DNA of 64,000 bases. Origin: Oscillospiraceae bacterium. GTDB taxonomy: Bacteria > Bacillota > Clostridia > Oscillospirales > SIG627. The notes below the pieces were generated by a model. That model ran no database searches, was not told where the DNA came from, and saw nothing but the letters and a program-made list of their open reading frames with translations. Positions 1,261-29,070 of the stretch are shown piece by piece. The stretch's first letter is position 1, and the number at the start of each line of letters is the position of its first letter. The position numbers and the translations under genes were made by a program. The stretch spans positions 12,770 through 76,769 of the forward strand of contig SVRV01000008.1 in NCBI GenBank assembly GCA_015064635.1, given 5' to 3'.

Positions 1261-2004
1261 TTATGCGTTTTCCTCTTCGGTAGCTTCCTCAGCTGCTTCT
1301 TCAGCCACGTCAGCAACCTGCTCACCCTGGTGACCTTCGATAACAGCGTTAGCCATTACTGAAGAGATAAGCTTGATTGCGCGGATAGCGTCGTCGTTGC
1401 CGGGGATTACGTAGTCGATATCGTCGGGATCACAGTTTGTGTCAACGATAGCAACGATCGGAATACCGAGCTTCTTAGCTTCTGCTACTGCATTAGCTTC
1501 CTTGCGGGGGTCAACGATGAATATAGCATCGGGAATACCGCCCATTTCCTTGATACCGCCAAGGTTCTTTTCAAGAGTTTCCATTTCCTTGGTAAGAGCA
1601 ACAACTTCCTTCTTGGGGAGCTGTGCGAATGTGCCGTCCTCAGCAAACTTGTAAAGTGTGTTGAGTCTTGCGATGCTGCGTCTGATTGTCTTGAAGTTTG
1701 TGAGCATACCGCCGGGCCAACGAGCGTTTACATAGTACATACCTGCTCTGAGTGCTTCATCCTTGATAGCATCCTGAGCCTGCTTCTTTGTACCTACGAA
1801 AAGAATGTTACCGCCGTTTTCAGCGATCTCGCGAATGAACATGTACGCTTCTTCAACCTTCTTAACTGTCTTCTGAAGGTCGATGATGTAGATGCCGTTA
1901 CGCTCTGTGAAGATGTACTCAGCCATCTTAGGGTTCCATCTTCTTGTCTGATGTCCGAAATGAACACCTGCTTCAAGAAGCTGCTTCATTGAAATTACTG
2001 ACAT
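1261..2004 (-). CDS. rpsB: 30S ribosomal protein S2
   Basis: 247 aa. [22 protein letters not shown] is the S2 signature region. AGGAGG lies upstream of the ATG. Confidence 0.97.
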
Positions 2005-5782: not shown

Positions 5783-5922
5783 GATTTTGCTTTAGCAAAA
5801 TCAACCTTAACGTTTGCAAAGCAAACATTTCACGTGACTTTAGTCACATTTCACTCACCGAAGGTGAATTTCACGTTTTGACAACGTCAAAACATTTCAC
5901 TGCATAACGCACAGCGTTATGC
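5783..5922. repeat. Chain of six perfect hairpins joined by an invariant ATTTCAC linker
   Basis: The hairpins are: H1 GATTTTGC-TTTA-GCAAAATC (5783-5802); H2 GTTTGC-AAA-GCAAAC (5812-5826); H3 GTGACT-TT-AGTCAC (5834-5847); H4 TCACC-GAA-GGTGA (5855-5867); H5 GTTTTGAC-AAC-GTCAAAAC (5875-5893); H6 GCATAACGC-ACA-GCGTTATGC (5902-5922). ATTTCAC occurs at 5827, 5848, 5868 and 5894. Confidence 0.85.
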
Positions 5923-21858: not shown

Positions 21859-22877
21859 GACTTATTGTTGACGTAATGAGCGGAGATTCAGAGGCTTTGG
21901 AGGCAGTAAAGGGTGCACTTAAGGCACACCGTGAGCTTGGTGTGGACATCACCCTTGTAGGAGACGAAAAAACGGTTACAGATGCTCTTGAAACACTTTC
22001 CGTTACCCCGAATGACAGTGTAAAGGTGGTTCACGCCGCATCCGTTGTTACAATGGAGGATGACTATCTTGTAGTAATAAAATCCAAAAAGGATTCCTCC
22101 ATGAGTGTGGGACTCAATCTTCTCAAGGCGGGAGAGGGAGATGCCTTTATTTCCACGGGAAATACAGGTGCTCTTGTTGCAGGCGCCAGCCTTATCGTAA
22201 GAAAGGCGAAGGGTATCAAGGCGGCGGCAATAGGTGCGGTAATACCACTCGGCGCCCCCATGCTTCTTATTGACGCAGGTGCAAATGTTGCTCCCAACGC
22301 CGAAACCATGAAGCAATTTGCTCTCATGGGCTCAATATACATGGAGAATATGTTCGGACTCAAGTCTCCCAGAGTTGCACTTATCAACAACGGTACCGAG
22401 GAGACCAAGGGCAATGACCTCGCCCGTGAGACCTACGGACTTTTAAAGGAATGTCCCGATGTTAACTTCATCGGTAACATCGAGGGCAGAGACGTGGTAA
22501 ATTCCGTTTGCGACGTGCTTGTTGCCGACGGCTATACGGGTAACATAATCTTAAAGCTGGTTGAAGGCTTTGGAAAGTTTATGTCAAAGACACTCAAGTC
22601 CATGTTCAAAAAGAATTTCAAGACAATTATCGGTGCTCTCTTCCTCAAATCAGAGGCAAAGGCACTTAAAAAGTCAATGGATTACACCGAATACGGCGGA
22701 GCACCCCTGCTTGGTATCAGCGCGCCCGTTATAAAGGCACACGGAAACTCCGGCGAAAAGGGTGTTTTCTCGGCTTGCAGACAGGCAAAGACCTTTGTTG
22801 AAACAGGAATAATTGATGAAATTGCAGCTCTTGGTGCAAAAATGAGAGAGGAAAAGAGAGGCACGGAGAATGAATAA
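21855..22877 (+). CDS. plsX: Phosphate acyltransferase PlsX
   Basis: 340 aa. IVDVMSGD...STGNTGALVA...GYTGNIILK are PlsX motifs. The GTG start overlaps the trmFO stop. Confidence 0.93.
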   Translation: MRLIVDVMSGDSEALEAVKGALKAHRELGVDITLVGDEKTVTDALETLSVTPNDSVKVVHAASVVTMEDDYLVVIKSKKDSSMSVGLNLLKAGEGDAFISTGNTGALVAGASLIVRKAKGIKAAAIGAVIPLGAPMLLIDAGANVAPNAETMKQFALMGSIYMENMFGLKSPRVALINNGTEETKGNDLARETYGLLKECPDVNFIGNIEGRDVVNSVCDVLVADGYTGNIILKLVEGFGKFMSKTLKSMFKKNFKTIIGALFLKSEAKALKKSMDYTEYGGAPLLGISAPVIKAHGNSGEKGVFSACRQAKTFVETGIIDEIAALGAKMREEKRGTENE

Positions 22878-23625
22878 CAGAAAAAGCCCGATTTATTCTC
22901 AAAGCTTTTTGGGTGCTCTTGATGAATTAGAGAAAATAATAGAGTATAAATTCCGTGACAGAGACTATCTTTGCAACGCCTTGACACATTCCTCCTTTGC
23001 AAATGAGTGCAAGGCACAAAAAAAGCAGGTTTCAAGCAATGAACGTCTGGAATTTTTAGGTGACTCCGTGCTGTCCATTGTTGTATCGGGATATATTTTC
23101 AATTCTCTTACCTACGAGCAGGAGGGCGACCTTACAAAGATACGTGCCTTTGCCGTATGCGAGGACGCACTGTATCAGTTTGCCTCGGGTATTTCTCTGG
23201 GAGACTATCTTGCACTTGGCAAGGGAGAGGAAAAGACCGACGGAAGGCACAGAAAATCCATTCTTGCCGATGCAACAGAGGCGATAATCGGAGCAATTTA
23301 TCTTGATAGCGGACTTTCTCTTGATGCTGTAAAAGGACTTGTCAGAAAAATAGCACTCCCACGAATAGAGGAGATACTTGACACCATAAAGCGTGGCGGT
23401 TCAAAGAATTACAAGGGTGCACTTCAACAGCTTGTGCAGAATTCAAAGGGAGATATTCTTGAATACGTTTACGTTTCGGAAAGCGGCCCCGACCATAATA
23501 AATCCTTTACCATGAGGGTTATGCTCAACTCCAACGAAATCGGAGTGGGCGTGGGCAAGAGCAAACAGGAGGCAGAGCAGGCTGCGGCGAAAGAGGCTCT
23601 GAAACTTTTCGGAGAAAATGTTTGA
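22870..23625 (+). CDS. rnc: Ribonuclease III
   Basis: 251 aa. It has the RNase III signature NERLEFLGDSVL and a C-terminal dsRBD (GPDHNKSF...GKSKQEAEQAAAKEAL). Confidence 0.95.
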   Translation: MNNRKSPIYSQSFLGALDELEKIIEYKFRDRDYLCNALTHSSFANECKAQKKQVSSNERLEFLGDSVLSIVVSGYIFNSLTYEQEGDLTKIRAFAVCEDALYQFASGISLGDYLALGKGEEKTDGRHRKSILADATEAIIGAIYLDSGLSLDAVKGLVRKIALPRIEEILDTIKRGGSKNYKGALQQLVQNSKGDILEYVYVSESGPDHNKSFTMRVMLNSNEIGVGVGKSKQEAEQAAAKEALKLFGENV

Positions 23626-27139: not shown

Positions 27140-27154
27140 ATTATGGAGCAACAA

Positions 27155-27307
27155 ATGTCCATTGCTTTTTCTGTGTGGATTGATGAAAGCAAGAAGATAA
27201 TTTATGTTAAAGAAAACCCGAACGGTAAAGAGATTCTTTTTATGGACAGAAACACGGGCATTAAAATTGTAACAGCCCTTTCTTCAAACGGGTATAAAAT
27301 AGTATAA
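27155..27307 (+). CDS. Possible small ORF (50 aa) downstream of the blaR1-like gene
   Basis: It is below the ORF-track cutoff. ATG 27155 lies 6 nt after GGAG, and an alternative ATG is at 27143. The translation is MSIAFSVWIDESKKIIYVKENPNGKEILFMDRNTGIKIVTALSSNGYKIV. It ends 4 nt before a 15-bp-stem hairpin. I recognise no family. Confidence 0.3.
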   Translation: MSIAFSVWIDESKKIIYVKENPNGKEILFMDRNTGIKIVTALSSNGYKIV

Positions 27308-27310
27308 TTA

Positions 27311-27365
27311 AATCAAAAACTGTAGTAAATTCGATTTTTAAATCATTTTGCTACAGTTTTTGATT
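27311..27365 (+). terminator. Long hairpin, probable terminator of the blaI/blaR1-like operon
   Basis: Perfect 15-bp stem AATCAAAAACTGTAG / CTACAGTTTTTGATT with a 25-nt loop. The T-run lies inside the 3' arm. Confidence 0.5.
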
Positions 27366-27402
27366 ATATAAATGCCTTAGAAGAATAAAGTCTATTAAAA
27401 TA

Positions 27403-27431
27403 TTGACAAAGCTTGTAAATTAATATATAAT
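27403..27431 (+). promoter_or_regulatory. Consensus sigma-A promoter of the 31-aa peptide transcript
   Basis: TTGACA (27403-27408), a 17-nt spacer, then TATAAT (27426-27431). Confidence 0.6.
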
Positions 27432-27595
27432 GTGCCTCGTGGAAGCCTACCGTTATACAGTCTAGTTCTTTGGCAGTTTCTTGTAGACGGTGGCGGTTAA
27501 AAGAGACGGTTGCCTTGTCGGCCCGCATAATTGCGGAAAGGTAAGGTGAGTGCACAGCTTTTATGCGGGAACTAATCCCGAAAGGAGGCTGGTAC

Positions 27596-27691
27596 ATGTA
27601 CGCTTTGACTATTGTTGGAAGTATTTGCAGCATTGCAGGACTTTTGTTCGCAATCTACACACATATTAAGCCCAATAAAAAGGAAAAGTGA
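27596..27691 (+). CDS. Candidate type I toxin: 31-aa hydrophobic peptide
   Basis: It is not in the ORF track because it is under 60 aa. AAGGAGG (27582-27588) lies 7 nt before ATG 27596. The translation is MYALTIVGSICSIAGLLFAIYTHIKPNKKEK, then TGA 27689-27691. That gives one TM-length hydrophobic stretch plus a Lys-rich tail. Confidence 0.5.
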   Translation: MYALTIVGSICSIAGLLFAIYTHIKPNKKEK

Positions 27692-27788
27692 GCCGTCTGC
27701 TGCAACAGATGACTCACTGAGTTTTGAGGTTTGACCTCTATAGTGTTTTGTTTGTATGGTGGCAACCGTCTTGGGCTTCCACTTCTCT
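27680..27788 (-). ncRNA. Candidate antisense sRNA (antitoxin-like), about 110 nt
   Basis: Predicted to run from the minus-strand promoter (27823-27795) to the 27717-27688 hairpin and its T-run. It contains no ATG. It is antisense to the 3' end and 3' UTR of the peptide gene. The ends are estimated, not mapped. Confidence 0.4.
27688..27717. terminator. Bidirectional terminator hairpin shared by the convergent peptide and antisense transcripts
   Basis: GTGAGCCGTCTG-CTGCAA-CAGATGACTCAC forms a 12-bp stem. The two imperfect positions form 1 wobble and 1 mismatch in the minus-strand RNA. On the minus strand it is followed by TTTTCCTTTTTATT, and on the plus strand by the weaker TGAGTTTTGAGG. Confidence 0.5.
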
Positions 27789-27794
27789 GTCGTC

Positions 27795-27823
27795 ATTATA
27801 TCAAATTGCTCAGTATTTGTCAA
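27795..27823 (-). promoter_or_regulatory. Consensus sigma-A promoter convergent on the peptide gene
   Basis: On the minus strand: TTGACA (27823-27818), a 17-nt spacer, then TATAAT (27800-27795). Confidence 0.6.
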
Positions 27824-27827
27824 TACC

Positions 27828-27863
27828 AAAATGCTAACAAAAGGAGCATTTTGCTTGTTTTTG
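27828..27863 (+). terminator. Plus-strand intrinsic terminator (candidate end of a read-through peptide mRNA)
   Basis: AAAATGCT-AACAAAAGG-AGCATTTT, followed by GCTTGTTTTTG. Confidence 0.5.
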
Positions 27864-27902
27864 TTGACATAATGCATACAAATCAATACATTTTGTTACA
27901 TT

Positions 27903-27931
27903 AAACACTCAGTCCTGAGTGTTTATTTTTT
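27903..27931 (+). terminator. Plus-strand intrinsic terminator
   Basis: AAACACTCAG / CTGAGTGTTT stem followed by ATTTTTT. Confidence 0.6.
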
Positions 27932-28005
27932 GCTTGAAAATGCTTTACAAACAGATACTTTTATGATACAATAAACTGATAAAATATTTTTTGGAGGAAG
28001 TAGTT

Positions 28006-29070
28006 ATGTTGACACATAAGATTGCTGTAATAGCCGGTGACGGAATAGGCCCTGAGGTAATTGCCGAGGGTGTAAAGGTGCTCGAAAAGGTTGCCGAGCT
28101 TGACGGAGGCTTTAAGTTTGAATTTACTTATTTCCCTTGGGGATGTGAGTATTATAAAGAGACAGGCAGAATGATGGCAGAGGGCGGTATCGAGGAATTA
28201 AAGAAGTACGATGCTATTTTCCTCGGTGCGGTAGGTGCTCCCGGTGTGCCCGACCACATTTCTCTTTGGGACCTGCTTCTTGTTATCCGCAAGAGCTTCG
28301 ACCAGTACATAAATCTTCGTCCCGTAACACTTTTAAAGGGCGCTCCCTGCCCCTTGAAGGATGTAAAGACAGAGGACATCAATATGACCTTCGTCCGTGA
28401 AAATACAGAGGGCGAATATGCGGGAAGCGGAAGCTGGCTCTTCCGTGACAAGCCCAACGAGGTTGTTATTCAGGACGGTGTTTTCTCAAGAGTGGGATGT
28501 GAGCGTGTTATCCGCTATGCCTACGAGCTTGCAAAGAAGGAGGGCAAGAGCCTTACAAGTATTTCAAAGGGCAACGCTCTCAACTACTCAATGGTATTCT
28601 GGGATAAGATATTTGCCGAGGTGGGACGTGAATATCCGGAGGTAGAGACACATTCTTATCTCGTTGATGCCGCAAGTATGTTTATGGTAAAGGACCCCAG
28701 ACGCTTTGAAATAGTCGTTACCTCAAATCTCTTTGGTGATATTCTCACAGACCTTGGTGCGGCAATAGCAGGCGGTATGGGACTTGCCGCAGGTGCAAAT
28801 CTTAACCCCGAAAGAAAATTCCCCTCTATGTTTGAGCCTATTCACGGTTCAGCCCCCGACATTGCGGGTAAGGGCATTGCAAATCCCCTTGCAACCGTTT
28901 GGTCGGCATCTCAGCTCCTTGATTTCTTCGGCCACGAGGATTGGGGCAAGAAGCTCATTGACCTCATTGAGGAGGTTCTTGTGGAAGGCAAGACACTTAC
29001 TCCCGACCTTGGCGGAAGTGCATCCACGTCAGATGTAGGTGACGAAATAATCAAAAAGCTTGGAGAGTAA
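28006..29070 (+). CDS. Tartrate dehydrogenase / 3-isopropylmalate dehydrogenase-family oxidative decarboxylase
   Basis: IAVIAGDGIGPEV, FLGAVG.P and NLFGDILTDLGA.IAGG.GLA are motifs of the isocitrate/isopropylmalate dehydrogenase family. The overall pattern looks TtuC-like. ATG 28006 lies 8 nt after GGAGG. The ORF-track start 27991 is TTG. Confidence 0.85.
   Translation: MLTHKIAVIAGDGIGPEVIAEGVKVLEKVAELDGGFKFEFTYFPWGCEYYKETGRMMAEGGIEELKKYDAIFLGAVGAPGVPDHISLWDLLLVIRKSFDQYINLRPVTLLKGAPCPLKDVKTEDINMTFVRENTEGEYAGSGSWLFRDKPNEVVIQDGVFSRVGCERVIRYAYELAKKEGKSLTSISKGNALNYSMVFWDKIFAEVGREYPEVETHSYLVDAASMFMVKDPRRFEIVVTSNLFGDILTDLGAAIAGGMGLAAGANLNPERKFPSMFEPIHGSAPDIAGKGIANPLATVWSASQLLDFFGHEDWGKKLIDLIEEVLVEGKTLTPDLGGSASTSDVGDEIIKKLGE

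Follow-up and report, generated by a model that had tools for sequence, protein, structure and literature searches.

The 64,000-nucleotide stretch analyzed here (the window; Oscillospiraceae contig SVRV01000008.1 of assembly GCA_015064635.1, with positions counted from its first letter) contains, between a blaR1-like operon and a dehydrogenase gene, a gene-free island of 420 bp that holds one copy of a module widespread in gut and rumen Clostridia. This locus is probably a type I toxin-antitoxin-like module belonging to a previously undescribed family. The architecture of the module is conserved, its 31-codon open reading frame (ORF) is under coding selection, its helices covary and its antisense promoter is conserved. 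From these features we infer two convergent transcripts that would pair with each other, a route for the decay of the paired RNA and a toxic peptide. In the best reading of the locus, a hok-like clamp between the 5′ and 3′ ends of the mRNA and a txpA/par-like antisense RNA overlapping its 3′ end would be combined in one module.

The type I reading is based on a small coding ORF, a restrained mRNA fold and a context typical of type I loci. The fold was judged against an established criterion, namely that sequestration of the Shine-Dalgarno (SD) sequence and long-distance pairing between the 5′ and 3′ ends are key determinants of type I toxin mRNAs (PMC8594479). As for the context, modules occur in multiple copies and tandem arrays, on viral contigs and, in one case, beside a lysis cassette. 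The toxin-antitoxin interpretation had been put forward in an earlier note made from the letters of this DNA. All seven signals listed in that note lie at the positions it gave, well above what chance would produce, and the relatives of the locus support it: the ORF, the antisense promoter and a set of complementary boxes are conserved in them, and both multiple copies and covariation in the boxes were found when looked for.

The earlier note had also considered that the leader might match a known cis-regulatory RNA family. Rfam covariance models, however, give no match at the gathering score to the module in the window or in 14 related loci. At E values up to 10, nothing relevant is found over 27250-28050; a weak match to ctRNA_pND324 (21.8 bits, where the threshold is 45; E = 1.5) is taken to be a chance one. 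No account of the module turned up in a targeted search of the literature, and its conserved motifs matched only unrelated primer sequences in the searchable texts.

Discovery and Distribution of the Family

Searches of plasmids and phages with the whole island using blastn returned nothing, and the 3′ region alone gave only chance matches in phages. Contigs with identical flanking proteins are of the same strain (at most 1 difference in 867 nt) and were uninformative. Three diverged loci were reached through the ‘homologues’ of a miscalled 101-aa ORF on the opposite strand (see below). In the alignment with these loci, conservation extends exactly from the left promoter to the right promoter with nothing conserved outside, and one of the loci has quite different neighbours.

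The family was scanned with a 20-mer taken from the region of the stop codon and the hairpin HP1 that begins in it. The GTDB species representatives gave 63 matching stretches, the IMG/VR viral contigs 32, and contigs from metagenomes, many of the human gut, 85. Deduplication leaves 143 unique modules, including approximately 10 chance matches in unrelated taxa, i.e. about 130 distinct modules. The genome matches are almost all in gut or rumen Oscillospirales or other Clostridia, with Oscillospiraceae, Acutalibacteraceae, Ruminococcus, Monoglobus, Lawsonibacter, Faecousia and Oscillibacter among the carriers; Faecalibacillus is also represented. The modules occupy unrelated genomic contexts and sometimes form tandem arrays, while no second copy was found within the 64-kb window.

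The order of elements on the plus strand is common to the family. The 5′ part comprises the promoter, the 5′ strand of helix P1, the hairpin P2, the P1b box, the helix PA, a helix that includes the SD sequence and extends up to the start codon, and the ORF. In the 3′ part, the stop codon is fused to HP1 and is followed by a second hairpin (HP2), a contiguous 3′ box with the partners of P1b and P1, a U-run and the promoter of the opposite strand.

Two loci are worth describing individually. In L089 (about 110-1460 and 2262-2314 of an IMG/VR contig), genes that we read from sequence alone as holin-like and CHAP/amidase-like lysis genes immediately precede the module, and a RAGATH-31 RNA (RF03101, 75 bits) is located 250 nt beyond it. 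L050 (anchors 997-1016 and 1945-1964, minus strand) carries two identical modules approximately 950 bp apart, and one of the leaders is cut off by what appears, from sequence alone, to be the 3′ end of a serine-recombinase-like ORF.

A Covarying Clamp between the Two Ends of the Predicted mRNA

In the window, the P1 5′ strand (GUGGAAGCC, 27439-27447) is the exact complement of 27774-27782 and closes the 5′-3′ clamp, while the P1b 5′ strand (AGACGGUUGCC, 27504-27514) is the exact complement of 27761-27771. The partners of both are contained in the 3′ box (27759-27782), with the P1b 3′ strand preceding that of P1. The earlier note had described two separated leader boxes matching the segment 27761-27782, and the complementarity is indeed complete over 11 nt and 9 nt (100%). 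Between the two boxes is the P2 leader hairpin (27449-27491), in which 27449-27456 pairs with 27484-27491 and the apical part is variable. Further downstream, the PA helix (27522-27569) is formed by CCCGCAUAA (27522-27530) and its exact complement UUAUGCGGG (27561-27569). A helix that sequesters the ribosome-binding site (RBS) spans 27550-27595 (27550-27562 with 27584-27595) and contains the SD sequence AAGGAGG (27582-27588). HP1 and HP2 occupy 27688-27717 and 27726-27738, respectively.

The full plus-strand RNA (27438-27786) folds at −127.3 kcal/mol (z = −5.6 vs. shuffles), and both boxes are paired in the fold, in line with the pairing of leader and 3′ untranslated region (UTR) that had been proposed. 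The window duplexes of P1 (−19.6 kcal/mol) and P1b (−22.7 kcal/mol) outcompete the local hairpin of the 3′ box (−8.0 kcal/mol).

Covariation was analyzed in alignment A2, which is made of 42 complete RNAs. In it, the proposed structure reaches 90.4% pairing compared to 33-45% for controls with slid partners, and none of 500 column shuffles reaches any of five measures. P1 is paired in 96.8% of cells and has compensatory changes at 7 of its 9 pairs. Furthermore, P1 duplexes between cognate strands are more stable than those between non-cognate strands (−17.2 vs. −14.5 kcal/mol), and none of 5000 permutations over 73 modules is as good. P1b is mostly conserved, being 92.9% paired with compensatory change at 2 pairs, and one-base deletions occur in both of its strands together in three loci (L017, L023 and L068). 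Among the cells that are not Watson-Crick on the plus strand, G.U exceeds A.C both in P1 (19 vs. 4) and in P1b (18 vs. 6), which argues that selection acts on the RNA of the plus strand and not on an inverted repeat in the DNA.

The remaining helices are supported to different degrees. All 8 pairs of P2 show compensatory changes, with 71.5% of cells paired in a gap-rich region of the alignment. PA is 92% paired with compensatory change at 6 of 7 pairs; two local hairpins that would compete with it (27523-27536 and 27566-27580) show little covariation. HP2, whose sequence is variable, is 84% paired with 4 of 5 pairs compensatory, G.U and A.C being about equal (12 vs. 18). The helix at the RBS is present in minimum free energy folds, is paired in 75-83% of cells and has some compensatory changes, while the predicted unpaired probability of the SD sequence is 0.05 in the window and has a family median of 0.2. 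When applied to the 42 full-length RNAs without guidance, RNAalifold predicts P1, PA, HP1 and HP2.

HP1 begins in the stop codon, as the earlier note had claimed, and a mismatch and a wobble are among its 12 pairs. Its folding energy is −16.1 kcal/mol on the plus strand and −17.5 kcal/mol on the minus strand. In extra copies retrieved with an nhmmer profile, the stem is conserved and the loop is free to vary, with one double compensatory change in L067; the idea that the 20-mer of the stop/HP1 region is invariant was dropped on account of this loop variation. A core CCGUCU/AGACGG is common to P2 (27449-27456/27484-27491), P1b (27504-27514/27761-27771) and HP1 (27690-27699/27706-27715), where it is conserved without covarying, and the stretch separating P2 from P1b contains an additional GRCGGU.

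The Peptide Frame Is under Purifying Selection

The candidate toxin gene is the 31-codon ORF at 27596-27691 (plus strand; stop TGA at 27689-27691), which is nested in a listed 42-aa ORF and encodes MYALTIVGSICSIAGLLFAIYTHIKPNKKEK. Its start codon, ATG 27596, is preceded at a distance of 7 nt by the SD sequence, and the product combines a hydrophobic helix with a Lys-rich tail, both as first described from the sequence. On the Kyte-Doolittle scale, residues 2-22 average +1.8 and the tail, which has a net charge of +3, averages −2.5.

In relatives, the length and the frame of the ORF are the same. The ratio of non-synonymous to synonymous polymorphism (pN/pS) of the peptide frame is 0.43 and 0.30 in two subfamilies, in both cases the lowest of the six frames and with no stops, and third positions are variable at 23 of 31 and 24 of 28 codons, respectively. 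The 31-codon ORF is coding, and its frame is under purifying selection. The peptides of different subfamilies are very different in sequence, yet a hydrophobic stretch and a basic tail are retained in all of them over approximately 28-33 codons; at least 2 of the last five residues are Lys or Arg in 134 of 143 modules.

The position of the start, 8 nt past GGAGG, is occupied by AUA, AUU or AUC in 67 modules and by a canonical start codon in 26, according to a heuristic tally. Examples of the former include L021:4340-4677, L024, L052 and L059, and in L053 there is an AUG two codons downstream. It should be noted that the subfamily with mostly non-AUG starts still has a pN/pS of 0.30. The SD sequence seemed more tightly sequestered in AUG-start members (medians 0.03 vs. 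0.21, p = 0.055), but the sequences are phylogenetically dependent and this difference is not claimed.

One module (L071:571-946, minus strand) is a mosaic. In leader and 3′ UTR it resembles the window type (74-80% identity), whereas the identity of its ORF is only 37% with the window type and 62-69% with the ‘ITLQ’ subfamily. ORF cassettes may therefore have been exchanged within a conserved RNA framework.

The peptide lies outside any named family, as the earlier note had surmised. Searches of 6-7 representative peptides against Pfam-A and NCBIfam using hmmscan (E up to 10) gave no toxin family, a PHROG search gave no family match, and a search of a database of 5.8 billion proteins gave no candidate. 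A tblastn search against 50,697 phage records yielded one match, at E = 9, in an unannotated faecal phage.

Facing Promoters and a Predicted Antisense RNA

The promoter of the peptide mRNA (TTGACA-17-TATAAT, 27403-27431, plus strand) and that of the antisense RNA (TTGACA-17-TATAAT with a TG extension, 27795-27823, minus strand, reading from 27823 to 27795) each match the consensus at 12 of 12 positions, in agreement with the earlier note. There are 3 perfect matches of this kind on the two strands of the window, where we estimate from base composition that about 0.02 would be expected, and two of them face each other across the island.

The predicted transcription start of the mRNA is at approximately 27438-27439. 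This gives a leader of approximately 158 nt from about 27438 to ATG 27596, close to the 155 nt or so that had been claimed. Within the family, 94 of the 130 modules having a complete 5′ flank carry the plus promoter with up to 2 mismatches, and the P1 5′ strand begins a median of 7 nt past the −10 hexamer, i.e. at the expected +1. Similarly, the minus promoter (up to 2 mismatches) is found in 109 of 125 modules, of which 66 have a perfect match, compared to 5% of 185-nt windows placed at random in the same loci. It is located 88-144 nt (median 110) downstream of the stop codon.

An RNA started at the minus promoter would end at HP1, the likely intrinsic terminator of this transcript. The predicted antisense RNA (27675-27789, minus strand, about 110 nt), our candidate antitoxin, folds at −33.1 kcal/mol (z = −3.0) into a 5′ stem-loop, HP2, HP1 and then the U-tract UUUUCCUUUUUAUU. 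The 5′ stem-loop is the minus-strand form of the 3′ box, and the U-tract is the complement of the Lys codons, such that the terminator and the tail of the peptide use the same bases. From the geometry of promoter and terminator, the antisense RNA would span the last 4-5 codons and the 3′ UTR, an overlap of approximately 110 nt.

Approximately 10 loci have an antisense unit with its own promoter in the absence of leader and ORF. Such orphan antitoxin-like units, or tandem arrays, are seen in L052 (near 260-366, 985 and 1127-1231), L069 (2469 and 2655), L016, L034 and L135/L149. Promoter-bearing orphan units are what would be expected of an antisense RNA gene that functions independently, and they provide indirect evidence for such a gene.

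The two strands differ at HP1. The minus strand has a good U-tract, and the plus strand has just 3-6 U that are part of HP2. Since the formation of P1 needs the 3′ box, the plus-strand RNA must read through HP1. At most loci the 3′ box itself is a hairpin followed by a U-run, and at some loci a canonical GC-rich terminator is inserted right after the P1 3′ strand and ahead of the minus promoter. Based on the position of these terminators, the plus transcript appears to be built to include the 3′ box and to stop just after it. The earlier note had held that the transcript could pair its leader with its 3′ UTR after reading through to the next terminators; the pairing is supported, and the likely end of the transcript is moved to just beyond the 3′ box. 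In the window, an AT-rich hairpin with a U-run (27827-27866, plus strand; inverted repeat, −11.1 kcal/mol) is a possible terminator of read-through at this locus, and it is not conserved in related modules.

A Proposed Model for Control of the Candidate Toxin mRNA

We propose that the plus promoter would give rise to an mRNA of approximately 345 nt in which P1 and P1b pair with the one contiguous stretch at the 3′ end. Both ends of the mRNA would thus be clamped in a three-way junction with P2. Within the clamp, the RBS and the bases up to the start codon would be held in a helix, and the peptide would be made rarely. The clamp itself would protect the two ends of this translationally restrained toxin mRNA.

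The convergent promoter would produce the antisense RNA of about 110 nt that ends at HP1. It would be fully complementary to the last codons and the 3′ UTR, and its 5′ end would be a contiguous copy of the leader boxes that are split in the mRNA. By pairing with the 3′ UTR, the antisense RNA may take the 3′ box away from the leader, leaving the 5′ end of the mRNA exposed and a long duplex in place. RNase III and 5′-end-dependent RNases would then degrade the toxin mRNA, and toxin would not build up as long as the antisense RNA is made.

The duplex between the 5′ end of the antisense RNA and the 3′ box has 28 bp and a predicted energy of −57.9 kcal/mol, and the unpaired probability of the P1 5′ strand rises from 0.00 to 0.48 when the 3′ UTR is masked. 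A role of the clamp or of the antisense RNA as a switch of SD accessibility was considered and is not supported by thermodynamic predictions: the median unpaired probability of the SD sequence is 0.2 in the full-length RNA, with the 3′ UTR masked, and in RNAs cut after HP1 (p = 0.41 and 0.62). The stability model is favoured because the accessibility of the SD sequence is unchanged while the 5′ end opens at P1.

A more speculative extension, which we regard as possible though doubtful, is that the antitoxin is a molecular mimic that displaces the mRNA 5′ end from the clamp rather than blocking the RBS. Leader and 3′ UTR would then form a reusable chassis for swapped toxin ORFs, and the AUA, AUU and AUC starts would be a selected throttle.

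Alternative Explanations

Several points weigh against the toxin-antitoxin interpretation. In the majority of members the start position carries AUA, AUU or AUC and not AUG, and it may be asked how much of the peptide is produced at all. Searches of Pfam, NCBIfam and PHROGs also gave no toxin family for the peptide. The antisense RNA is deduced from a promoter, a terminator and the orphan copies. In the folding predictions, the state of the clamp leaves the SD sequence as accessible as before, and translational switching by way of the clamp is not supported. Moreover, most members were found by means of the HP1 20-mer, and the conservation of the HP1 5′ arm and loop is circular in that set.

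A selected ORF, a structured mRNA and an antisense promoter would fit any tightly regulated small membrane protein. The module could, in that case, control the gene of a non-toxic peptide, such as a regulator or subunit (as many membrane proteins of 30 aa are), through antisense RNA and mRNA structure, with no role in addiction or killing, and the lack of homology to proven toxins is compatible with this. We nevertheless consider it unlikely. The peptide is hypervariable in sequence, its ORF being exchanged like a cassette while the RNA chassis around it is conserved; it has no conserved partner gene and is found in unrelated contexts; there are tandem copies, orphan antisense units and copies on viral contigs; and its expression looks strongly throttled by the sequestered SD sequence and the non-AUG starts. 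Hypervariability, tandem and viral copies and throttled expression are typical of type I toxins and not of housekeeping small proteins. It is a good deal less probable that the module is a structured non-coding RNA with an incidental ORF that is not translated at all. This would account for a leader and a 3′ UTR that are more conserved than the ORF, for the absence of a canonical start codon in most members and for the strongly favourable fold (z = −5.6), but not for a pN/pS of 0.30-0.43 in the peptide frame only, with variation dominated by third positions. Nor would it account for the ORF length, hydrophobic core and Lys tail kept across unrelated peptides, or for an SD sequence 7-8 nt from the start position.

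We give very little weight to the last two alternatives. The boxes and promoters could be the terminal inverted repeats of a small mobile element, or the product of gene conversion, their complementarity then being a property of the DNA. Inverted promoter hexamers plus GTGGAAACC do bound the module, which is present at many unrelated sites. However, the spacers of the two promoters show no sequence relation, P1b is parted from P1 by P2 on the 5′ side and is contiguous with it on the 3′ side, and departures from Watson-Crick pairing in P1 are mostly G.U on the plus strand (19 vs. 4 A.C), as expected for selection on RNA; no transposase or target-site duplication was noticed. Least probable of all is that the 101-aa ORF annotated by gene callers antisense to the peptide gene (27572-27886, minus strand; cluster P0001) is the real gene of the locus. 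It is called on 15 contigs and is open in relatives at 86-89 aa. On the other hand, its pN/pS is 0.57 and 1.00 in the two subfamilies, its length varies, it has no Pfam domain, and its ‘homologues’ are the antisense of the conserved RNA module; the frame would also begin inside or upstream of the minus promoter. This ORF shows no constraint at the codon level and is almost certainly spurious. A type I toxin-antitoxin-like module therefore remains the explanation that we prefer.

Other Features around the Module

Upstream of the island, a 54-aa ORF (27143-27365; 50 aa according to gene callers) directly follows the blaR1-like gene, and the 19-bp inverted repeat after it (27311-27365) is probably the terminator of the blaR1-like operon. 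Between the module and the dehydrogenase gene there are two promoter-like sites (27864-27892 and 27944-27972), the second of which probably serves the dehydrogenase gene, and a terminator-like hairpin (27902-27925). The sole Rfam match in the window above the gathering score is a Gut-1 RNA (RF01706, 67 bits) at 5822-5902 on the minus strand. In addition, rnc, which encodes RNase III (Pfam Ribonucleas_3_3 and dsrm), is found at 22870-23625 on the plus strand after a plsX-like gene, 4 kb upstream of the module. Its proximity is probably an unrelated coincidence; RNase III is nonetheless encoded in this genome.

Significance and Comparison with Known Systems

According to a 2019 review, hardly any clostridial species had yielded a type I toxin homologue in earlier homology searches (PMC6563280). 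The module would add a type I toxin-antitoxin family for the Oscillospirales, one of the major orders in the gut of humans and animals. It would also join two principles of control that have so far been studied separately, namely a covarying clamp of the hok/aapA type and a 3′-overlapping antisense RNA of the txpA/par type, and it raises the testable question of whether an antisense RNA can act by competing with the mRNA's own 5′ end. For annotation, the locus is a case in which gene callers report a protein of 101 aa on the wrong strand. Finally, the AUG and the AUA, AUU and AUC starts constitute a natural series for studying weak initiation.

Toxins of the CD2517.1 type in Clostridioides difficile are encoded by convergent overlapping genes, have a hydrophobic N-terminus and a Lys-rich tail, and are often found in prophages (PMC6563280). 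CD2517.1/RCd8, CD2907.1/RCd9 and CD0956.2/RCd10 share with the module the class Clostridia, the convergent overlapping layout predicted here, the Lys-rich tail and a link to phages. They differ in that the peptides of the module are shorter (about 28-33 aa) and its RNA framework is another one. A tblastn search with the peptide and a blastn search with the RNA against the 50,697 phage records, which we take to include C. difficile phages, gave no meaningful match.

The likeness to the 3′-overlapping class of type I loci, asserted in the earlier note, is supported, although the module departs in one respect from par (Fst/RNA I-RNA II of Enterococcus pAD1) and Fst-like loci. What these share with the module is a peptide of approximately 30 aa that combines a single hydrophobic helix with a charged tail, a 5′ structure that sequesters the RBS, and a 5′-end helix that would protect the mRNA; in the module, too, a toxin mRNA and a small antisense RNA are predicted to meet at a hairpin. 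In par, however, the 5′ ends of the two RNAs are complementary owing to direct repeats, whereas the repeats of the module are inverted: the 5′ end of its antisense RNA would be the same as the leader boxes, not their complement, and both would compete for the 3′ end of the mRNA. No Fst/Ldr match was obtained when representative peptides were searched against Pfam and NCBIfam, libraries that presumably hold an Fst model.

With txpA/RatA and bsrG/SR4 of Bacillus subtilis the module shares the geometry of an antisense RNA, here a predicted one, that overlaps the toxin mRNA at its 3′ end only, over roughly 100 nt, and duplex-dependent decay as the expected outcome. There is no relation in peptide sequence, and those systems lack a covarying clamp between the 5′ and 3′ ends. 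An effect of SR4 at a distance, on the 5′ region, is also known. A further difference is that the accessibility predicted for the SD sequence of the module is unaffected by the 3′ end.

The host of the module is Gram-positive, unlike those of hok/sok and of aapA1/IsoA1 of Helicobacter, and no Hok/Gef or AapA match was obtained in Pfam, which we assume to hold a Hok/Gef model. The parallel with these two systems is one of principle: in hok/sok (fbi-tac) and in aapA1/IsoA1, the full-length toxin mRNA is locked by a long-distance 5′-3′ interaction, with the SD sequence sequestered (PMC8594479), and in the module such an interaction is supported by covariation. Their antitoxins pair with the 5′ region after trimming of the 3′ end, whereas that of the module would pair with the 3′ partner of the clamp.

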